A stretch of 30,346 bases of DNA from Gammaproteobacteria bacterium (GTDB lineage Bacteria > Pseudomonadota > Gammaproteobacteria > Arenicellales > JAOTWM01), in the NCBI GenBank assembly GCA_029862885.1, contig JAOTWM010000012.1, positions 1 to 30,346 of the forward strand. Reading direction: 5' to 3'. The first letter of the stretch is position 1. Each line of letters starts with the position of its first letter. Below the pieces are notes generated by a model, which saw only the letters and a list, made by a program, of their open reading frames with translations, made no database searches and was not told the DNA's origin. Of this stretch, positions 5,437-28,834 are shown in pieces. The position numbers were made by a program, and so were the translations under genes.

Positions 5437-6060
5437 ATGCAGATACTCTATGGGGCCAAGGGCGCGGGTTCGGTTGCTCCTCAAGCCTTGCTAACCCATC
5501 TAGAAGTGCCATTCGAGCTAAAGCTGATTAGCTTTGACGCAAACGAGCACCAGTCAGAGGCATTTCTTGCCGTCAACCCCCGGGGGCAGATCCCTGTGCT
5601 GGTTTTGGACGACAAAAGCGTCCTGACTGAATCGCTTGCCATCATGCTTCATGTCGCCGACAGCCACCTGTCCTCTGCATTGATTCCAGCACCGGGCAGT
5701 GCCGAGCGAGCCCAAGTGTATCGCTGGATGTCATTTACCGCGACGAATGTGTACGAGGGGCTCTTGCGTCTTCTATACCCAGATATGTACACGACCAACA
5801 GCGACCTGTCCAAAGTCGTAGAGTCGGCTGATCAGTATTTGAATTCAGCTTTTGGAATTCTCAATCAAGCGCTAAGTAAGGGGCCATGGTTGGTTGGAGG
5901 GCGTACGGGCGTCACCGATATCTATCTTGCGATGCTGCTGACTTGGTACCCTGATCAGCAGAGGCTATACGAAGTCTACACGAATCTGCAGCCGTCCTTG
6001 AAACAGACGTTGGCGCTCGAAGGTGTGACAAGGGTGTTTGAGGAAAATGAGTTGATCTAA
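5437..6060 (+). CDS. Glutathione S-transferase family protein
   Basis: Thioredoxin-like N-domain (QIPVLVLDD...ESLAIMLHV) and a helical C-domain. Length is 207 aa. Confidence 0.8.
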   Translation: MQILYGAKGAGSVAPQALLTHLEVPFELKLISFDANEHQSEAFLAVNPRGQIPVLVLDDKSVLTESLAIMLHVADSHLSSALIPAPGSAERAQVYRWMSFTATNVYEGLLRLLYPDMYTTNSDLSKVVESADQYLNSAFGILNQALSKGPWLVGGRTGVTDIYLAMLLTWYPDQQRLYEVYTNLQPSLKQTLALEGVTRVFEENELI

Positions 6061-6259: not shown

Positions 6260-6745
6260 TTGAACTTTGGCTCAGCCTATTCGTCACCTGACGACAAAAG
6301 CTTCATCGCGAAGTATCGTGCCTGCTGCCATTGCGGCGCGGTGCGGTACGAAGTTCGCGCCGATCCGGTCGACGCCAAGATTTGTCATTGTAGCGATTGC
6401 CAGATATTGCACGGCGCGCCCATGCAGTGGGCCGCAATTTTCCACAAAGAGGATGTCAGGTTCGCAACTGGGGCTGAGCATTTGCGATTCTATAACAGCG
6501 TCCTCAACCGCCATGAAAGACTCGTGCCCTGTAAGGTGGCCTGCGCATTGTGCGGTACGCTAATCGCCGATGAAGGGCGAAATATGTGGCTGGCCTTTCC
6601 CACGCTTTTCGATTTCGGCGCGCCGCCACAGGTGCCCGAAGCGTTCAGGCCGACCTGTCACCTCTTCTACGGCATGCGGGTGATGGATATCGTCGATGAG
6701 TTGCCGAAATGGTCTGGCCACAAAGATAAATCGAGGCGACTTTGA
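6260..6745 (+). CDS. GFA-family (glutathione-dependent formaldehyde-activating / CENP-V-like) protein
   Basis: CHCGAVRYEV...CHCSDCQ...C zinc-binding pattern of the GFA domain. TTG start with an AAGGAG Shine-Dalgarno 9 nt upstream. Confidence 0.8.
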   Translation: MNFGSAYSSPDDKSFIAKYRACCHCGAVRYEVRADPVDAKICHCSDCQILHGAPMQWAAIFHKEDVRFATGAEHLRFYNSVLNRHERLVPCKVACALCGTLIADEGRNMWLAFPTLFDFGAPPQVPEAFRPTCHLFYGMRVMDIVDELPKWSGHKDKSRRL

Positions 6746-7871: not shown

Positions 7872-8232
7872 CCAACAGACAAGCATAAGCGGGTTTCGTT
7901 TTTGGAAGGGGCAAAACTACGATATGGGTTTTCCATAGCGTATCCGAAACTGCAAAAGGGTTTCGGCTTTAACCGAGCTGTTTATTCGGGTTTGAATCCA
8001 TGTCAGTGCTTTGGCCTTAATTTGTCAAGGTCTGAATCTGATCTTTCGATTCCGTTCGTTCAGTGCGATCTCATCTGATAGTTTGGGAAAGCGGCCATGC
8101 AACTGGTCGACCTATACGGCTGCAACTTGCCCGGAGCGGTCATTCGAGAAGATTCACTGGAGGGCGGTTCTCGGCACTTTTCGGAGGCTGGCTAGATTTG
8201 ATTGTTGGTTTCATTCGAGCGAACATCCGCTC

Positions 8233-9555
8233 ATGACTCCCGAGACTCATTTCGCTGAAAACGATGGCGTCAGCATCGCGTATCAAGTTTTCGGTGACGG
8301 CTCACAGGACCTGATATTCATACCGGGATGGTTATCGAATCTTGACATATTGTGGGAAGAGCCGAGGGTGGCTCGTTTCCTTCTGTCACTGGCGCGAATT
8401 TTTAGGGTTACTGTTATTGATAGACGCGGAACTGGGCTTTCCGATCGTGTCGCGCCCCCGACTCTAGAAGTTCAGATGGGCGATGTGACGGCGGTGATGG
8501 ATGCCGCAGGTTCCGAACGCGCAGCATTTCTCGGTAATTCCGAAGGCGGGAGTATGTGTGCGTTGTTCGCGGCGACCCATCCGGATCGAACAACGGCTCT
8601 AATTACGGTTGGTGGATATGCTAAATGGATAAAGTCTGACGATTATCCGTATGGAACGAAACCGAGTGAAGCTGAGCAGTGGTTTGAACAAGTTGAAAAC
8701 GAGTGGGGTGGTCCCATCGCAATCGACTTTATCTCACCGAGTTTGGCAAACGATGAAAAACACCGACACTGGTTGGCTAAATTTTACCGATCGAGTGCAA
8801 GCAAGGCGAACGCCATTGCAATGCTAAGAATGGGTGCGGATATTGACCTTCGAGCAATATTGCCGACCATCAATGTTCCAAGCTTGGTGCTTCAAGCCAA
8901 AGCCGACCTTACCAACTCATTGGATTCGGGTCGCGACCTCGCAAGCCGAATCCCAAATGCGAAACTTGTCGAAATGGAATGCAGAGATCACGTGCTATGG
9001 GGGGACTGCAGTGAAGTGATTATTGGTGAGATACAGAACTTTCTCGGCGAAAAACAGACGATTTCGGTCACTGATCGAGCATTAGCCACCGTATTGTTCA
9101 CTGACATAGTCGATTCAACACAACTTGCGAACGATTTGGGCGATGAAAAATGGAGCGATCTACTTGAGGGACATAATGAAGCGGTCAGAAGGCAGCTTGA
9201 AATATTCCGTGGCAACGAGGTAAAGACTACCGGTGACGGCTTTCATGCAACATTTGACGGGCCCGCTCGAGCAATCCAATGTGCAGCCTCGATACGAGAA
9301 GCGACACGTCAATTAGGTTTAAGTCTCCGAATTGGCATACATACTGGAGAATGTGAGATTCGTGGAGAATCACTTGAGGGGGTGGCGATTCACTTGGCGG
9401 CACGTGTATCAGGGATGGCTTCTGCCGGGGAAATTGTTGTGTCAAGAACAGTTAAGGACCTTGTTGCTGGGTCAGGAATTGAGTTTGAAGACTTTGGTGT
9501 TCATGCCCTTAAGGGAATCTCTGGTGAACAACAACTATTCAAGGTGGTGGCGTAG
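8233..9555 (+). CDS. Alpha/beta-hydrolase-fold domain fused to a class III adenylate/guanylate cyclase catalytic domain (LipJ/Rv1900c-type architecture).
   Basis: N-terminal half resembles alpha/beta hydrolases. C-terminal VLFTDIVDSTQLANDLGD...TTGDGFHATF...RIGIHTGE are cyclase CHD motifs. The start codon is uncertain; the frame is open back to 8011. Confidence 0.75.
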   Translation: MTPETHFAENDGVSIAYQVFGDGSQDLIFIPGWLSNLDILWEEPRVARFLLSLARIFRVTVIDRRGTGLSDRVAPPTLEVQMGDVTAVMDAAGSERAAFLGNSEGGSMCALFAATHPDRTTALITVGGYAKWIKSDDYPYGTKPSEAEQWFEQVENEWGGPIAIDFISPSLANDEKHRHWLAKFYRSSASKANAIAMLRMGADIDLRAILPTINVPSLVLQAKADLTNSLDSGRDLASRIPNAKLVEMECRDHVLWGDCSEVIIGEIQNFLGEKQTISVTDRALATVLFTDIVDSTQLANDLGDEKWSDLLEGHNEAVRRQLEIFRGNEVKTTGDGFHATFDGPARAIQCAASIREATRQLGLSLRIGIHTGECEIRGESLEGVAIHLAARVSGMASAGEIVVSRTVKDLVAGSGIEFEDFGVHALKGISGEQQLFKVVA

Positions 9556-9639: not shown

Positions 9640-10320
9640 ATGGCAACAATAAGACCCATGATCAAGGTTATCACCAACAAATACGCGTCCTCACCCTACA
9701 GTCGGAAAGGCATCATTGTGCTGGAGGAGAAGGGCCTACCCTATGAGCAGGAAAACATCGACCCGGATTTCCTGCCGGACGGGTTCGAGTCGATGAACCC
9801 CAACCTGCGGGCGTCCTTGTTGATCGATCAGGGCCAGATGATATTTGAGTCGGACAACATCGTAGACTATCTCTTGCGGACGTATCCGGGGGAGCGGTCA
9901 GCGGATGCGCCGGACCCGCCCCTGACCGAAACCATGACACGCCCGGATCACCACATCCACGATTCTATGATCCTGGTTACGATTGAAACTGTCCTGAATA
10001 GCGCGAATAACATATCATTTTTTGCCACTGGCGGAATCGACCCCGCGAAGATCGAGCCCTATGGGTGGATATGGGAACGGGACAAGGTCCGCATCGATTC
10101 CTGCATGACTTGGCTGGACCAGCCAGCAATACCCGAGGGATTTGCTCCTGGAGTTTTTTCCATCATGGATCTAAAAATGATGTGCGCGTTCCGGTGTTTA
10201 ACCCGATGCGCGAATGATGACTGGAACCCCGACTGGAGCAAATATCGAAATCTCGATTCGATTTATGCGTTTTATCGGGACCGACCCTCCATTGTGAAAA
10301 CTGACCCTGGGCTAGGATAG
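9640..10320 (+). CDS. GST N-terminal-domain (thioredoxin-like) family protein
   Basis: SPYSRKG...NPNLRASLLIDQGQMIFESDNIVDYL fits the GST_N fold. The C-terminal half is atypical. An alternative start lies at 9658. Confidence 0.6.
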   Translation: MATIRPMIKVITNKYASSPYSRKGIIVLEEKGLPYEQENIDPDFLPDGFESMNPNLRASLLIDQGQMIFESDNIVDYLLRTYPGERSADAPDPPLTETMTRPDHHIHDSMILVTIETVLNSANNISFFATGGIDPAKIEPYGWIWERDKVRIDSCMTWLDQPAIPEGFAPGVFSIMDLKMMCAFRCLTRCANDDWNPDWSKYRNLDSIYAFYRDRPSIVKTDPGLG

Positions 10321-21704: not shown

Positions 21705-21741
21705 ATCTCATACTTGACATGAGATTTTGAATCTATACAAT
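21705..21741 (+). promoter_or_regulatory. Near-consensus sigma70 promoter TTGACA-16-TACAAT, overlapped by a 7-bp inverted repeat (ATCTCAT/ATGAGAT) that could be an operator.
   Basis: TTGACA at 21714-21719 and TACAAT at 21736-21741. The IR arms at 21705-21711 and 21719-21725 straddle the -35 box. Confidence 0.5.
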
Positions 21742-21951
21742 ACCGTGCCCCATGAGATACCAGAACTGCAAACAAGTCGTCATATCAAGCGCGCGGCCGT
21801 GCCACGCGTTGACGGATCGTGTCGCCCCGAGACTCGCGCAAGTCCCCGGTGTGGTACTCGATACGTCGAATCTACGAGATGGCGTGATGTAACCTGTTGG
21901 CGAATTTATCCGCTGATAGGTGCGTGAGCGTTGCCTACCAGCGGGCATAGA

Positions 21952-21983
21952 CCCTGGTTGGCGAGCGCTACCAGGGTTTTTTT
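21952..21983 (+). terminator. Rho-independent terminator: hairpin CCCTGGT-loop-ACCAGGG followed by TTTTTTT
   Basis: A 7-bp GC-rich stem with an 11-nt loop and a T7 run, read directly. It closes a roughly 235-nt unit that begins at the promoter above. Confidence 0.6.
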
Positions 21984-22130
21984 GTGTCCGGAGATTTGGT
22001 CCGGGTGCAATGACAGAGTTTGATGCGAGTCCGCGGAGGTTCTGCGGTATAGGTTCGGAATGCCTATCCGGTGCGCTGCTGCTAATCATCGCAATGCGTA
22101 TGCCGAGCCGTTCGCAGCGTATCGAACACC

Positions 22131-22204
22131 AGCGAGATAGCTCAGCTAGGTAGAGCAACCGACTCATAATCGGTCCGTCGCAGGTTCAACTCCTGCTCTC
22201 AATT
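22131..22204 (+). tRNA. tRNA-Met(CAT)-like sequence. The D, anticodon and T arms are canonical, but the 3' acceptor strand pairs at only 5 of 7 positions. Probable pseudo-tRNA or att-site-modified tRNA.
   Basis: TAGCTCAGCTAGGTAGAGC D-arm. Anticodon stem ACCGA/TCGGT with loop CTCATAA. T-arm GCAGG TTCAACT CCTGC. Acceptor 5' AGCGAGA versus 3' TCTCAAT, with no encoded CCA. Confidence 0.55.
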
Positions 22205-22634
22205 GCCTTTGAAGCAATCTTGGAAATGGCGAAAGCCTGAATTTGTAAGTGAAGGCCCCCGTGGTTGGCATTGTTTACGGTTGTATTCGAACGCAATGTG
22301 AATCACAGCGGCTGCCGGGCCGGATAACGCTAGTTGCGCCGGCTGGCGGCGTACACGACAGCATTATGTAGCGCGCAAATTCGAATTGCGCTCACTACAG
22401 GAAGTGTCGCTACGTATCGTTCTCGGGTGCGCTTAAGTCGAGCGCCGGCGGTATTTCGCGCGGTGGTCGTGGGGCCGGATCTAAATTAGCCAATGGCAAA
22501 TACGGACGTGAAAAATGAAATACTAGCCGAGTCGGTATTGGCGGCCTGTAACGGGAACCGAGTAAGAAATCGTCATGCGGCCGGTGGATTGTTTCCGCTG
22601 GATTAATCAAGCAACCTTAATAGGGATTAGGACA

Positions 22635-23780
22635 ATGTTTGGAATTAAGCGAGTGGTGGTTGCGCGACATGAGCGTGGCCTATTGATCAAAAATCGGAAC
22701 GTACAGGAAGTGGTGCAGCCGGGAAACTATTGGGTTTTCGGGCCACGGACTCGGATCGAGACTTATGAGATCACCGTGCCGGAATTCGAACACGAATTAA
22801 CGGCATTTATCGTAAAGGATCGACAGCACCCGGCGCGGCGTTATTTCGACGTCGTTGAAATCGGGGACCGGCAAGTGGGCTTGGTCTATAAGGACAACAA
22901 ACTGGCCGATGTGTTATCGCCGGGTAGCCGCCGGCTGTACTGGAAAGGAATCGTCGATGTGCGCGTGGAAATCATCGATATCGATGAAGACTACACCGTG
23001 CCGAAGCCGGTCGTGGCTTTGCTGGCGCGCCAGCGGCCGGGCGTGTTTCCGGCCCAAGTCAAGGATTTCATCTGCGTAGCGGAAGTGGCAGATAAGTTTG
23101 TCGGCATGCTAATCGTAGATGGAGAGCTGGTGAAGACCCTGCAGCCGGGTTTGCATGCATACTGGAAGTTCAACCGGCGCATCGGTGTCGAGCAAATCGA
23201 TTTACGCTTGCAGAGCATGGAAGTGTCGGGTCAGGAAATGCTCACCAAAGACAAGGTAAGTCTGCGTGTGAACTTGTCGGCAACCTACCAGGTGGCCGAT
23301 CCGGTCAAGGCACGTTCGACGTTTCACAACTTCGTTGAGCAGTTGTACCGCGAGTTGCAGTTTGCCGTGCGCCAGGCGATTGCAGCACGTACGCTGGATG
23401 CTCTTTTGGGAAACAAGGATGAGCTTGACCGCAGCGTCTGCGCAACCGTCCGCGCCAAGGTCGGCGCCCATGGTTTGGAAGTACACGGCGTTGGCATCAA
23501 GGATGTGATCCTGCCGGGCGACATGAAGACCATCCTCAACCAAGTGGTTGAGGCGGAGAAGGTCGCGCAGGCGAACGTGATCAAGCGACGTGAAGAGACC
23601 GCGGCAACGCGGTCGGCGCTCAACACGGCGCGTCTTATGGACGAGAACCCGACCTTGTTTCGTCTGAAGGAACTCGAAGTGCTCGAGAAGGTGACGGAGA
23701 AGGTCGACCGGCTCACTGTATTCGGTGGGCTCGAAGGAGTCATGCAAGACGTCGTGAAGATCAACGTGCGTTCCGATTGA
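22635..23780 (+). CDS. SPFH/Band-7 (stomatin-prohibitin-flotillin-HflK/C) domain protein
   Basis: Core ...LTKDKVSLRVNLSATYQV.DP.KA... followed by ...GVGIKDVILPGDMKTILNQVVEAEK.AQANVIKRREE coiled-coil region. The tracker's start at 22575 is possible. Confidence 0.8.
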   Translation: MFGIKRVVVARHERGLLIKNRNVQEVVQPGNYWVFGPRTRIETYEITVPEFEHELTAFIVKDRQHPARRYFDVVEIGDRQVGLVYKDNKLADVLSPGSRRLYWKGIVDVRVEIIDIDEDYTVPKPVVALLARQRPGVFPAQVKDFICVAEVADKFVGMLIVDGELVKTLQPGLHAYWKFNRRIGVEQIDLRLQSMEVSGQEMLTKDKVSLRVNLSATYQVADPVKARSTFHNFVEQLYRELQFAVRQAIAARTLDALLGNKDELDRSVCATVRAKVGAHGLEVHGVGIKDVILPGDMKTILNQVVEAEKVAQANVIKRREETAATRSALNTARLMDENPTLFRLKELEVLEKVTEKVDRLTVFGGLEGVMQDVVKINVRSD

Positions 23781-23864
23781 TAGGCGCACATGATCGGCAA
23801 CGATTTTAATTTGGAAGGTCCGGGCAATAGGGCCCGGGCCGCCCCACGTAACCTGAATAGCATA

Positions 23865-24839
23865 ATGAAACCGCAATTGGCTCGCGAGATCATTGCTTGT
23901 CTGCCCAAAGGTCGAACGCATTTTCGATACTTTAAGGATCGCTATGCGTTCTATTTGCTGGCGTACGCCACCGGCCGTGGCCGCTCAATTTCCGAACTTA
24001 AGCTTTCACCGGTTCGACGATTGCTCGATAAACCCAGCGTAAAACAACTTATTGCCCGTCACGGCGATAATGTAATAAATCGATCTGACTTACTAAACTC
24101 GTGGATTGAACCGTCCGAACCGTTTGTTTTGGGATTGGGTATCTGGAACGGCAGTTCAAAGCATTGGCGCAATGCTCAAATATCGCGGCGCGGGGCAAAC
24201 TTGGTTTTGCAGCTCAACTTCACTAATCAGCATCAGGCCGAGTATTACCGTTTAGTGAAACCCCGGTCGACTGGTTATCTAAATGGATACGGCCATCCTG
24301 TGTTACGGGCGGGGCCGGGAAAATTTCACCGCGACACCTTGGCTTGGGCACGAATCGACCTCGATTTCGGCGCCGACGAAGCATTAATCGAGGAGATCCA
24401 GTCCGACTGGATTCGCTATGCTGATTGGGATTTACGCCCCGTGTTGAAGTGTCGGTATCGGGCGCGCCAATGTGGGTTGTGCAAGAATATTGATGGCAAG
24501 AAGCGCGACATCGCTCACTATTTGGAGCACACCCTCAAGCCGTACCGGGAAATATGGATCGAGGCGATGCTCGCCGCCACCATCGAATTCATAGCGGACG
24601 AATTGGGAATCGGGGCGATCTACTACCATACCCAGCGTTCGGGAGCCGCCCTCAAAAATATCCATTCTGGTTACCGCCAGCCGCCTCGGTCGCTATATTC
24701 CGATCTACCCCGCAAATTTTGCTTCCAATCCACAAATCGTCCGCCGGAATTTCTAGGGGCCGGTCGACACGGCGCCGGCAAGGCCAATAAATATCCTTGG
24801 TATTTATTGAGAGTCGCTGCAGCAAATACCACTAGCTAA
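23865..24839 (+). CDS. Conserved hypothetical protein coupled to the SPFH gene. No recognizable family; possibly a nuclease-like D..D/EEIQ motif.
   Basis: Long ORF with GC-typical codon use starting 10 nt after the SPFH stop. N-terminus may be at 23790 or 23865. Confidence 0.55.
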   Translation: MKPQLAREIIACLPKGRTHFRYFKDRYAFYLLAYATGRGRSISELKLSPVRRLLDKPSVKQLIARHGDNVINRSDLLNSWIEPSEPFVLGLGIWNGSSKHWRNAQISRRGANLVLQLNFTNQHQAEYYRLVKPRSTGYLNGYGHPVLRAGPGKFHRDTLAWARIDLDFGADEALIEEIQSDWIRYADWDLRPVLKCRYRARQCGLCKNIDGKKRDIAHYLEHTLKPYREIWIEAMLAATIEFIADELGIGAIYYHTQRSGAALKNIHSGYRQPPRSLYSDLPRKFCFQSTNRPPEFLGAGRHGAGKANKYPWYLLRVAAANTTS

Positions 24840-24858: not shown

Positions 24859-25515
24859 TTAAAGTTGCCGGCCGAGCCACCCGTCGCGCTGTTTAGTGGA
24901 TTTGCGATACAGCGCGGTAAATTCGGAGTCTATGGCCTGCTTGACTGCACCTAACCGCAACACGGCACTACTCCATGCGTCCAATTTCGGGTGGTCGCCA
25001 GGGTCTAAGAGCTGTCGTGCGGGTTTGAGAATGTCGAGCCGCGCAAATAAAGGTGCGAAGCACGCATCGACGAGGCCGGGTTCGGGTCCGTCGAAAAACA
25101 CGGCATCCGATTTTTTGTCCTCGAGGTAGTCAAACTTCTCGTCGAGATCGTACGCGGCGTCGTCGAACTCGGATTCGTCCGTTGCTGTAACGGCCCCAGA
25201 CAGATCCGCCAATACCGCCGCGCCGTACGCAATCATTGCTCGATGTCTGGCTCGTTGTAGCGGCTCCTCGGGCAATAGCGAATCCGACGCGATGTCGTTC
25301 AGGTACTCGTTGATGACTGCAGATTCAAAAACAATATGCTGGTCATCTATGCGCAGGATCGGGACCCGACCAAGCGGCGACACGTCCTCGAACCAGGGCG
25401 GTGGGTTAGTGATATCGATTATGGTTAGGCGATACGCAATGTCCTTAAGTCGCAACACGACTTCCGATGACTGCACGAACGGACAGAGCGCGATGCTGAT
25501 TAATTCCAAGTCCAT
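24859..25515 (-). CDS. Glutathione S-transferase (CPF, Grx-like type)
   Basis: N-terminal LCPFVQSSEVVL...GRVPIL...ESAVINEYL GST_N fold. Lies 35 bp downstream of the AAA gene on the same strand. Confidence 0.8.
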   Translation of the reverse strand: MDLELISIALCPFVQSSEVVLRLKDIAYRLTIIDITNPPPWFEDVSPLGRVPILRIDDQHIVFESAVINEYLNDIASDSLLPEEPLQRARHRAMIAYGAAVLADLSGAVTATDESEFDDAAYDLDEKFDYLEDKKSDAVFFDGPEPGLVDACFAPLFARLDILKPARQLLDPGDHPKLDAWSSAVLRLGAVKQAIDSEFTALYRKSTKQRDGWLGRQL

Positions 25516-25550: not shown

Positions 25551-27026
25551 TCAATGTGCCGGCACGGTGCGCCCGGAGGCCCACGATCGCAACGCGTTCA
25601 CCTGCTCTGCCATCACCACCGAAAGCGGTTGTGTGTCTTCGACTTCCTTTAGCACCAGTGCCGTATTCAGTGCCTCGTCCCGGGCGTGGGCGCGATACAG
25701 CGCGGAGACGACCGCTTGCTCCAATTCCGCACCGGAAAATCCATCACTCGCTTTGGCCAGCATGTCGAGATCGAACTTATCGGCATCGAGCGCGCGATTG
25801 CCAAGATGGATCTTCAGAATCAGCGCGCGGGTTTCGCGATCCGGTAAATCCACGAAAAATATTTCATCGAAGCGACCTTTGCGCACCAATTCCGGTGGCA
25901 ACAGCGAAATTTCATTGGCCGTCGCAACAATAAACACCGCGGATTTCTTTTCTGCCATCCAGGTCAACAGCGTTGCCAGGATCCGCCGTGCAGGGCCGTC
26001 GTCTTCTTGTCCCGCGATGCCTTTCTCGATTTCATCGATCCATAATATACACGGCGCCATGGTGTCCGCACTCTTCAGCGCTTCGCGCACATTGCGCTCG
26101 CTCTGGCCGTAGAACTTATTGAATATCGCTCCCATGTCCAAGCGCAACAGCGGTGCTCCGAATGCCCCGGCTACGGCGCGTGCCGCGAGGCTCTTGCCGC
26201 AGCCTTGCACTCCCAATAATAAGATGCCTTTGGGCGTATCCAATTGCGGATTACTGGATTTGCCCATAAATATATCGCGCCGGTTGGTAAGCCATTCCTT
26301 AAGTGCGTTTAAGCCACCGACCTCGGCGAATCGGCTCGTTTCATACTCAAACGTCAGGGTATTGTCACGATCGAGCAGATCGTACTTCGCTTTCATCACC
26401 CCGGGCAGGTCGGTGTGGGAGATCGCGCCGTCGTTAAAGATCGCCTTTCGAACCAGTCGCTGCGCGTCGCCGTGGGTAAGGCCCGAGAGGTTTTTAACCA
26501 ACAGCTTGGTGGCCTGCCGGTCCGCCTTGACACGCTGATTATTCTTCCCGGCGGCCCATTCATTGGCCGTGTCCACCACCATGCTTTTTAGCTCTTCCGG
26601 TGTCGGCAATCCGAGACCGAATTCAGCAGTGTAGTGCCTTAGTTCGCCGGGGATTTCGAGTTCGTGGCTAAGCAACACGATGCAGCGCTCGACGCTGGAA
26701 TGCTTTATAGCGATGTCTTTCAGCAGTCGGGTATGGACGGGCTCAGCAAGGAAATGATGATAATCCAGCAATACATAAATGCCGGGCTGGCTCTCTGCCT
26801 TAATGTGCTCCAATACGTCCTTAGGCTCGGCATGTTGGGCTTCGCCATCTATGTCATAGCGTGCGAAACGTAGACCTTCGGTTACGGACCACTTGAATAA
26901 GGGTTTGCCGAGACTTTCCGCGATTTCAATGAGTAGCGTTAGCACGCGTTGTTCTTCGTGCGATTCCACCACTACGATCGGGATCTTGGATTTGAGAATC
27001 AATGCCAAGTCGTGTCGGTTGTCCAT
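25551..27026 (-). CDS. AAA+ ATPase (classical clade) with an N-terminal domain of roughly 250 aa and unknown function
   Basis: Walker A GVQGCGKS, Walker B ILWIDEIE, sensor-1 and Arg-finger block VATANEISLLPPELVRKGRFDEIFFVDLPD. The start codon is 5 nt after the AceK stop. Confidence 0.85.
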   Translation of the reverse strand: MDNRHDLALILKSKIPIVVVESHEEQRVLTLLIEIAESLGKPLFKWSVTEGLRFARYDIDGEAQHAEPKDVLEHIKAESQPGIYVLLDYHHFLAEPVHTRLLKDIAIKHSSVERCIVLLSHELEIPGELRHYTAEFGLGLPTPEELKSMVVDTANEWAAGKNNQRVKADRQATKLLVKNLSGLTHGDAQRLVRKAIFNDGAISHTDLPGVMKAKYDLLDRDNTLTFEYETSRFAEVGGLNALKEWLTNRRDIFMGKSSNPQLDTPKGILLLGVQGCGKSLAARAVAGAFGAPLLRLDMGAIFNKFYGQSERNVREALKSADTMAPCILWIDEIEKGIAGQEDDGPARRILATLLTWMAEKKSAVFIVATANEISLLPPELVRKGRFDEIFFVDLPDRETRALILKIHLGNRALDADKFDLDMLAKASDGFSGAELEQAVVSALYRAHARDEALNTALVLKEVEDTQPLSVVMAEQVNALRSWASGRTVPAH

Positions 27027-27031
27027 ACTAA

Positions 27032-28834
27032 TTATCTAACCAACTGTTGGCTCTCCGGATAGATGCGCACGCTGGGCACTTTGTTCTGCCGAAGCTCATC
27101 CTGTAACTTTTGCCAATATTGGGTGCCCAACATGTTGCCGTGCGTGTTCCTAAAAACCCCGCGAAGATGTGCGTTTGGAATCCTTAACCCTACGCTGACT
27201 TCCTCGGGCAAAAATACTATGCCGTCGTCAAAGAACCATTCGGGAATTTCTTCGTCGCCGTCGATGCCATCGTTTCGTTCGTAAATCTTGACGTCCACAA
27301 ACGGTTCTAATGCATCGTAGTCAAACAAATATACCTTATGAAATTCACTGACACCGTAATTGCGTGCATCCAGGTCTTTATTGAATATATTCGCGGCCGC
27401 ATTATTCTTGATGCAATAGCCAAGATTTATCATTGCAGTCTCGGCGTCTTCCGGCGACGCGGTTTCCCAAAACACAGGCAAAGGTGTCATCCGGCGCTGA
27501 ACTATCAGATGTTTGAACACGACGCCCTCGTTCTGTAGCGCGACGGTCTCGCCGGCTTCGCGGACAAGCTCGTCCAGCAGTTCCTTGTCGAACCAGTCCT
27601 TGTCGAGTCTGACATCATAATAAATAATATTGTCCAGCATACTGCCGGTGCGGTTAATTTCGTGCACCCGGTTATACTTCTTTAACACCGATTCGATGCC
27701 CTCAAATTCTCCCCACTTGTAGTCTGCGGTGGGCTGGTCGCGGATTATCTTCAAGTTGTAAGCGGAGCACGGTGCGGAGAAGCCGATAGCCACGGTGCCA
27801 CGAAATCCAACTGCGGTTTGCAGCGTTTGATTTTCCCCGATCAATTCCTCCTTGAGTTCGCTCATTACTGCCAGTTTGCCCAGGTGGTTATAACCGATCG
27901 TAGAATAATGCAGACCCAGCGGCCTTTGCGGCATGATGCTGTGAAGAAATTCCGATAGTTCGTGATAATACAGGCTCGTTACATGAAAATTCGCAAGTGT
28001 GGAGCTGAAGATATTGTGGCCATCTGCGATGCGGTGCAGCACCGCATCGACATAAATACCATGATCATCGTTGAGCAGTGCAAGAATCAATGGCATGACA
28101 AACTCGTCCGTAAATATGATTCTGCCGACGATATACGCGCCGCGATTACGATAGAATCCGGCCTCGATCATTTGGATACAGCGAATCGTTCCGACCTGAC
28201 TCGGATTCGTGTTGATTACCTGGTTGATACGTTCGGTGACGAGTGTGGCATCTTCGGAAAGGTTGCGGTAAGGAATCGAAAAATTGGGACACTGTAAAAT
28301 TTCCGCCACTGTCGCGTTTTGTACTGCTTCGCCACCGGGGAATTCGCGGTAGATTTCGCTAACATATTCCCCGCTGGCCTCCACCGCTTGGCGGGACGAG
28401 TACTCAACCGGTCGCCACTCGTCCGGAGAGATCTTTCGGCGGACCGAGTGGTAATAGGCGTGCGCGAGGTCGGCCTCGTAACGCCCGTCGATGAGAATGA
28501 GATAGTGCTGCTCAACCTGGTCCCAGAGTTCTTCGCGTTCCGCAAAGATCGGAAAGTTGTCAATTAGGGTCGCGCTTAGCTGCGCAACGCTCGCGCTATA
28601 TAGTGAAAGACGCTGTTTACTCAGCGCGAGAGAAGTGCGCGGGTCGCGATTTTCGAATGCCTGTTTGGCGAGGTCCGGAATGCCGAGGAATTCCGAGTAA
28701 TATGTGTCGAATTCGTACAAGATCCATTGTGCTGACGACTCGGCCTGCGCCGACTCACCGTGCATCGATTTCAGCTGCTCGGCGTGGTCGACCACGCCGT
28801 CGGCTAGAGGGTTTGCTGGCTCCGGTGTGTGCAC
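27032..28834 (-). CDS. aceK: Isocitrate dehydrogenase kinase/phosphatase (AceK) homolog
   Basis: Collinear similarity to E. coli AceK as recalled from memory, e.g. RRMTPLPVFWE...AAANIFNKDL...NYGVSEFHKVYLFDYD versus RRMVPLNIWLE...AAANIFPGDM...NFGVTRHGRVVFYDYD. GTG start at 28834; alternative ATG at 28765. Confidence 0.85.
   Translation of the reverse strand: MHTPEPANPLADGVVDHAEQLKSMHGESAQAESSAQWILYEFDTYYSEFLGIPDLAKQAFENRDPRTSLALSKQRLSLYSASVAQLSATLIDNFPIFAEREELWDQVEQHYLILIDGRYEADLAHAYYHSVRRKISPDEWRPVEYSSRQAVEASGEYVSEIYREFPGGEAVQNATVAEILQCPNFSIPYRNLSEDATLVTERINQVINTNPSQVGTIRCIQMIEAGFYRNRGAYIVGRIIFTDEFVMPLILALLNDDHGIYVDAVLHRIADGHNIFSSTLANFHVTSLYYHELSEFLHSIMPQRPLGLHYSTIGYNHLGKLAVMSELKEELIGENQTLQTAVGFRGTVAIGFSAPCSAYNLKIIRDQPTADYKWGEFEGIESVLKKYNRVHEINRTGSMLDNIIYYDVRLDKDWFDKELLDELVREAGETVALQNEGVVFKHLIVQRRMTPLPVFWETASPEDAETAMINLGYCIKNNAAANIFNKDLDARNYGVSEFHKVYLFDYDALEPFVDVKIYERNDGIDGDEEIPEWFFDDGIVFLPEEVSVGLRIPNAHLRGVFRNTHGNMLGTQYWQKLQDELRQNKVPSVRIYPESQQLVR

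Follow-up and report, generated by a model that had tools for sequence, protein, structure and literature searches.

A tRNA-like RNA, a soluble SPFH/Band-7 protein and an unannotated protein form a conserved trio, probably an RtcB-less variant of RtcB-centered RNA-repair modules

What does a bacterial SPFH gene do when the gene beside it is not the usual NfeD partner but one that matches no known family? We asked this for contig JAOTWM010000012.1 of a gammaproteobacterial genome assembly (GCA_029862885.1), which we analyzed over its whole length of 30,346 nt (hereafter the window). On its plus strand an SPFH/Band-7 gene is followed by the gene of a protein that we call G2. An earlier note, made from the sequence alone, had described the two genes as translationally linked and, lying next to a tRNA-like junction, as candidates for a stress or defense module. 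We found that the region from about 21714 to 24839 is laid out as a promoter, a tRNA-like RNA, the SPFH gene, an intercistronic hairpin and the G2 gene. This region is probably one module of the RtcB-centered family of RNA-repair and translation-stress systems, in a variant that has no RtcB. Its features are the following (related loci carry numbers beginning with L, related proteins numbers beginning with P).

21714-21762 (promoter 21714-21741), plus strand: sigma-70-type promoter TTGACA-16 nt-TACAAT, matching 11 of 12 consensus positions, then the motif CCGYGCCCCATGA
21952-21983, plus strand: leader hairpin CCCTGGT/ACCAGGG followed by a run of seven T, read from the sequence
22131-22204, plus strand: tRNA-like gene of the b7a type, 430 nt upstream of the SPFH gene, called tRNA-Met(CAT) by ARAGORN
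22202-22634, plus strand: structured 3' extension of the tRNA-like element and 5' leader, with hairpin H1, a GNRA hairpin and further conserved blocks (alignments and RNAalifold)
22635-23780, plus strand: soluble SPFH/Band-7 protein of the PA4582/PaFlo8 'slipin family' type, 381 aa (Pfam Band_7 and homologues)
23817-23840 (arms 23817-23825/23832-23840), plus strand: GC-rich intercistronic hairpin with a stem of 9-10 bp, found in the window, L086, L001 and L085
23865-24839 (most likely start; the open reading frame opens at 23790), plus strand: G2, 324 aa, an unannotated family with a putative, divergent GNAT-like fold; the protein contains RIDLDFGADEALIEEIQSDW

The SPFH protein carries a Band_7/SPFH domain (Pfam PF01145) at residues 154-321 (E-value 1.5e-30, 107 bits against a cutoff of 23.6), and its N-terminal 150 aa consist of two extra copies of the first beta-segment of this domain. 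Its start at 22635 is marked by the MFGIKR common to its homologues and by an AGGA 4 nt upstream. The maximum Kyte-Doolittle mean over 19 residues is 1.47, so that no transmembrane helix is present, as the earlier note had observed. Its second observation, that the NfeD partner is missing, was likewise borne out: a Pfam scan of the window recognized neither NfeD nor any other SPFH partner nearby. Having neither the membrane anchor nor NfeD, the locus is not a classical membrane SPFH-NfeD pair of the stomatin, HflK/C or QmcA type, and with the HflK and HflC models the scores of the protein stay well under the cutoffs. A homology search gave 6515 relatives at E<=1e-20; for many of these, among them hundreds of 383-aa proteins, the full-length identity is 60-65%. 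The NCBI name for these homologues is 'slipin family protein', and one is named after Pseudomonas aeruginosa PA4582, of which we take PaFlo8 to be the orthologue. PaFlo8 (PA14_60630) is encoded inside the rtcR-rtcB-rtcA locus of strain PA14 (PMC13086221).

The surroundings of this subfamily are as characteristic as the protein. Upstream DNA of sufficient length was available for 62 loci, and 60 of these have a tRNA-like gene on the same strand, 230-470 nt before the SPFH gene; the element in the window is homologous to those found in this position in dozens of loci. The anticodons vary (Ile-GAT in 14, Met-CAT in 12, many others, and some unreadable), and the D, anticodon and T arms are kept, with compensatory changes at 12 of 18 pairs in an alignment of 18 copies. 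In the same alignment the acceptor stem comprises only 4 bp and the CCA end is absent. The copy in the window reached 52.5 bits with the Rfam tRNA model; its acceptor stem counts 4-5 bp, with mismatches at pairs 2-71 and 3-70, and it, too, has no CCA. A covariance model of the tRNA-like family assigned 83 bits to it, but this copy was part of the training set. Because of the short and mismatched acceptor, the missing CCA and the conservation of the family, we regard it as a member of the tRNA-like family and not as a normal tRNA-Met. A CACCAGC direct repeat flanking the tRNA-like element was also considered as a feature and was dropped when it failed in the larger set, in which the conserved 3' feature is a hairpin.

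This combination of SPFH protein and tRNA-like RNA had been predicted before, as the Band-7/b7a-tRNA module (Burroughs & Aravind 2016, Nucleic Acids Res 44:8525); a citing preprint (bioRxiv 10.1101/312249, 2018) speaks of a predicted Band-7-associated tRNA next to RtcB. As far as the systems are described there, the window shares with them the soluble SPFH subfamily and the upstream tRNA-like gene on the same strand, and relatives also adjoin RtcB. The P. aeruginosa protein PA4582/PaFlo8 in its rtc locus exemplifies these systems. The window has the soluble PA4582-type protein and the upstream tRNA-like gene and, unlike the predicted systems, no adjacent RtcB; RtcB is also missing beside its three closest relatives. 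The window further differs in the additional gene G2 and in an RNA that exceeds a tRNA in length.

This longer RNA is conserved and structured, and the tRNA-like element makes up no more than its 5' part; we saw it in L086, L001, L033, L036 and other loci as well as in the window. Directly after the cloverleaf follows hairpin H1 (22202-22218 in the window), which shows compensatory changes, and then the GNRA hairpin GGCGAAAGCC (GGC-GAAA-GCC) at 22228-22237. Most loci have in addition a T-arm-like hairpin, GYGGTTCGAATCCRC, in which U-A to C-G exchanges occur in 6 of 17 sequences; it is deleted in the window and kept in L086. Further conserved blocks reach the ribosome-binding site of the SPFH gene, and the entire spacer from the tRNA-like element to the SPFH gene is 83% identical between the window and L086. 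Upstream, the promoter block and the next 20 nt are conserved in L086, L085 and L001 despite otherwise different flanks, and they lie about 390-440 nt before the tRNA-like gene; judged from this pattern, the promoter at 21714 is the probable transcript start of the module. L085 and L001 also resemble the window between the hairpin at 21952 and the tRNA-like gene, and this hairpin with its T-run could act as an attenuator or terminate a short RNA of about 235 nt. We also noted tRNA-like genes of the b7a type near G2 in stretches in which no SPFH gene was found (L064, 5720-5806; L066, 2421-2509; L034, 834-920; L048, 1818-1904). The element of L064 lies about 200 nt upstream of G2, and the contig of L066 ends before a possible SPFH gene.

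Next, the question arises whether SPFH and G2 belong together at all. The open reading frame that contains G2 (23790-24839, plus strand, 349 aa) is opened by an ATG 10 nt after the SPFH stop codon, and the earlier note had taken this as a translational link. We found that the first 25 codons are not conserved, that all G2 homologues align from the Met at 23865, and that L086 and L001 have stop codons inside the equivalent in-frame extension. If G2 starts at 23865, the spacer measures 84 nt and holds the conserved hairpin; in more distant loci of the SPFH-to-G2 arrangement a hairpin lies directly after the SPFH stop codon, often followed by a T-run. The unconserved extension, the stop codons in relatives and the hairpin-containing spacer leave translational coupling unsupported. 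From the arrangement, the two are rather same-orientation neighbors that are probably co-transcribed with differential expression.

The pairing itself is conserved far beyond chance. The earlier note had proposed a check of neighborhood conservation, and this check supported the pair: SPFH accompanies G2 in 20 of 80 species-level loci, and the SPFH-G2 arrangement is kept in four lineages (57-100% G2 identity) whose flanking genes differ. The window and the loci of P0002, P0003 and P0004, whose G2 proteins are 70, 57 and 58% identical to that of the window, all have the tRNA-like gene, the SPFH gene (365-381 aa as called) and G2. Upstream, the window and L086 have an FrhB-like gene and a DAO/GCV_T dehydrogenase. 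In L001 and L085 a Rieske oxygenase takes this upstream place, and the downstream genes are different as well. In the three closest relatives, the surrounding 8-10 kb contain no RtcB. Because the trio is conserved through this turnover of flanks, we infer that the SPFH protein, its RNA and G2 work together.

To describe the company kept by each partner we used two censuses. The G2 census covered 80 species-representative genomes, with open reading frames on the same strand within at most 3.5 kb labeled by phmmer and their identities checked with Pfam and NCBIfam; the SPFH census covered 80 metagenomic loci found with the SPFH alignment. Beside G2 we found the following neighbors.

RtcB: 57 of 80 loci, immediately upstream in 31
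Small basic protein with the motif RNPxAxSPLLRKGGxH: 37 of 80, usually right after G2
SPFH protein of the window's subfamily: 20 of 80, immediately upstream in 8
RbfA-like protein: 19 of 80
HNH endonuclease: 10 of 80
XRE repressor, divergently transcribed: 9 of 80
ArfB: 8 of 80
PrfH: 4 of 80

Among the 49 G2 loci that extend 3 kb or more in both directions, 42 had at least one neighbor from RNA repair or ribosome rescue. The SPFH-centered census gave RtcB in 24, HNH in 23 and G2 in 9 of its loci. Taken together, the counts from both sides indicate that G2 is primarily associated with RtcB and sometimes joins the Band-7/tRNA-like unit. A well-conserved unannotated family is among the most faithful neighbors of RtcB, ArfB and PrfH.

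Several observations on these neighborhoods stand apart from the counts. Many related loci contain arrays of 7-24 tRNA genes; in L010, L012, L017, L092, L094, L095, L098, L099, L104, L112, L114, L119 and L139 arrays of 13-24 tRNA genes lie just upstream of an HNH/tRNA-like/SPFH/(G2)/RtcB string. A divergent XRE-type repressor is frequent at such loci, which resemble proteobacterial counterparts of the TrcR-controlled 'L-arrays' discussed below. The small basic protein comprises 55-105 aa with the motif MPxxRNPxAxSPLLRKGGxHxKSKxxxR (L001, 8953-9147; L085, 11020-11214; L002, 8974-9207); it has no match in Pfam or NCBIfam and is absent from the window by tblastn. It may be a ribosome-binding or rescue-type peptide, and we presume a likeness to ArfA.

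What kind of protein is G2? The earlier note recognized no family for it, and our searches agreed: G2 has no match in Pfam (31 members scanned, E<=1), NCBIfam, PADLOC or, by profile, PDB sequences. It is nevertheless a substantial family: a first search gave 398 homologues, and a profile search of 1.84 billion representatives gave 870 clusters (50% identity). The homologues are almost all of about 312 aa, single-domain and named "hypothetical"; the best 150 of the 870 profile matches are all full-length members of the family, without a bridge to any named one. None was found in plasmid or phage collections. The alignment contains 49 invariant columns, which include H123, H144, R156, R163, D165, E176, E177, Q179, D181, E246, H255, K264, C12 and C286. 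By secondary-structure order, these residues would gather at the catalytic cleft of a GNAT protein, on its bordering strands and helices.

We read G2 as a very divergent GNAT-like protein, although its Foldseek matches are not significant and it has no sequence-profile match to the GNAT superfamily. Judged by predicted secondary structure, an invariant Q179-S/T-D181-W182 stands in the place that the pyrophosphate-binding Q/RxxGxG/A loop occupies in GNATs, between strand 4 and helix 3. Because this replaces the canonical loop, acetyl-CoA binding of the usual kind is probably lacking. With its helical N-terminal part and C-terminal additions G2 is also about twice the size of a GNAT domain. The GNAT superfamily includes the inactive ornithine decarboxylase antizyme as well as the tRNA-dependent FemX and L/F-transferase. 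Because of the many invariant polar residues around a GNAT-type cleft we favor an enzyme, and it is tentatively possible that G2 acts on an RNA end or on an aminoacyl- or peptidyl-tRNA. The homologues P0297, P0321, P0365, P0379 and P0383 begin with some 80 additional aa of basic character (such as MPLRRSEGGMGGRLGRSNMEH), which may be a fusion with a small basic peptide and a hint of RNA or ribosome binding.

The earlier note had also suggested a PD-(D/E)xK-like nuclease motif in G2. The motif in question, RIDLDF...EEIQSDW, corresponds to two adjacent predicted strands (158-167 and 172-179). No nuclease fold is among the top structural matches and the place of the motif lysine is taken by an invariant glutamine, and the nuclease assignment was ruled out on the fold.

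Three further known systems bear on the trio. The Anabaena repressor TrcR governs a set of genes that comprises rtcB, an HNH gene, a long tRNA array and the operon alr0739-alr0740 (PMC10272220), and translation inhibitors induce all of these (PMC10272220, PMC8421152); L-arrays with an HNH gene and rtcB are induced by translational stress (Santamaria-Gomez et al. 2021, PMC8421152). Loci related to ours combine an XRE-type repressor, a tRNA array, HNH, RtcB and the SPFH subfamily of the window, whereas the window itself has a single tRNA-like gene and no array, HNH or repressor. Neither PMC8421152 nor PMC10272220 describes G2 or a tRNA-like gene before the slipin gene. With RtcB2-PrfH ribosome repair, which protects from colicin E3 (PMC9223846, PMC13166195), the G2 loci share the logic of an RNA ligase combined with a ribosome-rescue factor: G2 stands in rtcB-prfH-G2 strings in 4 of the 80 loci and next to ArfB in 8. 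The window, in contrast, contains neither PrfH nor RtcB, and G2 matches none of the PrfH-RtcB accessories of Burroughs & Aravind 2019 (TPR, Pol-beta NTase, Zn-ribbon, charged helical protein). Finally, in Salmonella and other bacteria Ro60 and a Y RNA (YrlA) are encoded next to RtcB, that is, a ring or cage protein with a noncoding RNA that has a tRNA-like domain (bioRxiv 10.1101/312249). Ro60 has a TROVE fold and our protein an SPFH fold, so that the likeness would be a functional one only.

These comparisons suggest how the module might work. From the conserved promoter a long structured RNA with a tRNA-like core would be made. Oligomerization is general among SPFH proteins, and the Band-7 protein would accordingly form a ring or cage, which with the tRNA-like RNA may build a ribonucleoprotein scaffold. 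This scaffold would retain broken tRNA or rRNA, or damaged ribosomes, a role that Burroughs & Aravind proposed from the example of Ro and its Y RNA. G2 would be an accessory factor of the same pathway; if an enzyme, it would modify or recognize an RNA end or an aminoacyl- or peptidyl-tRNA at translation machinery that has been damaged, either ahead of RtcB sealing or following it. Because RtcB is absent from the 30-kb contig, it would have to act in trans in this genome.

Several points weigh against this reading of the window as a ligase-linked repair module. A tblastn search of the 30-kb window found no RtcB, HNH, XRE repressor, ArfB/PrfH or small basic protein, and a repair ligase elsewhere in the genome is an assumption. 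In the literature there is no experimental demonstration that the tRNA-like RNA is made or that the Band-7 protein binds RNA, and deletion of PaFlo8 in P. aeruginosa had no phenotype under the assays tried. Both censuses comprise the 80 loci closest to the query and are not a random sample, and Anabaena alr0740, which is annotated 'slipin family protein', is no more than a putative member of our SPFH subfamily.

With these points in mind we weighed other explanations. G2 could be a non-catalytic adaptor or cofactor, similar to antizyme or to archease as a helper of RtcB, that connects the Band-7/RNA scaffold with RtcB or the ribosome, or that binds the small basic protein. The missing acetyl-CoA loop agrees with this, as do the positions of G2 directly after rtcB (31 of 80) and of the small basic protein directly after G2 (37 of 80), and the fused basic extension of some homologues suggests binding to protein or RNA. 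A set of 49 invariant columns with many His, Asp, Glu, Lys and Arg and two Cys is, however, more typical of an active or metal site, and its predicted placement at the flanks of a GNAT cleft points the same way; we consider an adaptor, although the main alternative, unlikely. The SPFH/tRNA-like unit and G2 might also be independent RtcB accessories that became adjacent after the loss of rtcB and do not interact directly. G2 is indeed mainly a partner of RtcB (57 of 80), with SPFH in only 20 of those 80 loci, G2 occurs in only 9 of the 80 SPFH loci, and a hairpin, often terminator-like, separates the genes. Yet four lineages, in which G2 identity falls as low as 57%, keep the RtcB-less trio, its promoter and its spacer hairpin amid differing flanks, and in L064 a tRNA-like gene lies directly upstream of G2 without SPFH, so that mere adjacency appears very unlikely.

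Even less probable is an ordinary membrane-microdomain SPFH protein whose NfeD has been swapped out and which lies near a normal tRNA-Met by chance. The Band_7 domain is present, both ARAGORN and Rfam call the RNA a tRNA, and tRNA genes are frequent at island borders; a coincidence is nevertheless hard to reconcile with a protein without a transmembrane helix, with a tRNA-like gene of changing anticodon and 4-bp acceptor in 60 of 62 loci, with the two acceptor mismatches and missing CCA of the window copy, and with a subfamily recurrently linked to RtcB. We give equally little credit to a defense or toxin module in which G2 would be a PD-(D/E)xK nuclease effector regulated by SPFH. SPFH proteins do occur in some defense contexts, the G2 motif superficially resembles D...(D/E)xK, and an OLD-family nuclease gene lies next to the locus of L001. 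The motif has Gln for Lys, though, the neighbors of G2 are repair and rescue genes, and the flanks in the window are metabolic genes. PADLOC matched neither SPFH nor G2, and G2 has no plasmid or phage homologues; the check for defense islands proposed in the earlier note thus came out negative and an anti-phage system was rejected. What stands of the note's stress-or-defense proposal is that the tRNA-like gene matters and that the unit is of a stress type.

A further reading, unlikely but more far-reaching, is a ligase-independent branch. Here the Band-7 protein and a tRNA-like RNA of about 0.5-0.9 kb would form a vault-like ribonucleoprotein compartment without a dedicated RtcB, and G2 would be the founder of a new enzyme family, with GNAT fold and no CoA loop, whose direct target is damaged translation machinery. 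It might, for example, transfer an acyl or aminoacyl group to, or remove it from, broken tRNA, peptidyl-tRNA or the tRNA-like RNA itself. If true, bacterial quality control of RNA and ribosomes would have a branch not seen before.

The remainder of the window holds genes of other kinds. At the left end of the contig lies an IS21-family element on the minus strand, with IstB at 400-1155 and an IstA-like transposase with rve and Mu-transposase C-terminal domains at 1173-2747. An open reading frame at 8011-9555 (plus strand) fuses an alpha/beta-hydrolase with an adenylate/guanylate cyclase catalytic domain. Three glutathione S-transferase genes (5437-6060, 9640-10320 and 24859-25515) and a GFA (glutathione-dependent formaldehyde-activating) gene at 6260-6745 were found; GFA or glutathione S-transferase genes also occur near the module in L001, L085 and L002, and this proximity is probably coincidence or shared ecology. 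At 25551-28834 (minus strand), a 491-aa AAA+ ATPase (CDC48/FtsH-like AAA domain, N-terminal half without assignment) is encoded directly downstream of aceK (isocitrate dehydrogenase kinase/phosphatase) on the same strand, a pairing kept in the identical contigs L088-L090. Against the IetA models of NCBIfam the ATPase reached 81.6 bits at a cutoff of 510, a match that comes from the generic AAA domain only.

RNA repair by RtcB is biochemically well established, while its helpers and real substrates are poorly known. The Band-7/tRNA-like/RtcB system is already known as a prediction, for which the L-array and TrcR work provides experimental context. Judged by the databases and the accessible literature, in which Burroughs & Aravind 2016 is represented through the citing preprint, the G2 family, the RtcB-less trio and the extended structured RNA appear to be new. 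For a module that has been a prediction without experiments for nine years, the window offers a compact version without RtcB. G2, and likewise the long RNA before the SPFH gene, is a concrete and clonable candidate for learning what these systems repair and how. Should G2 be only an adaptor, the result would be a useful annotation and no surprise; should it be an enzyme, it would add a new activity to RNA and ribosome quality control.

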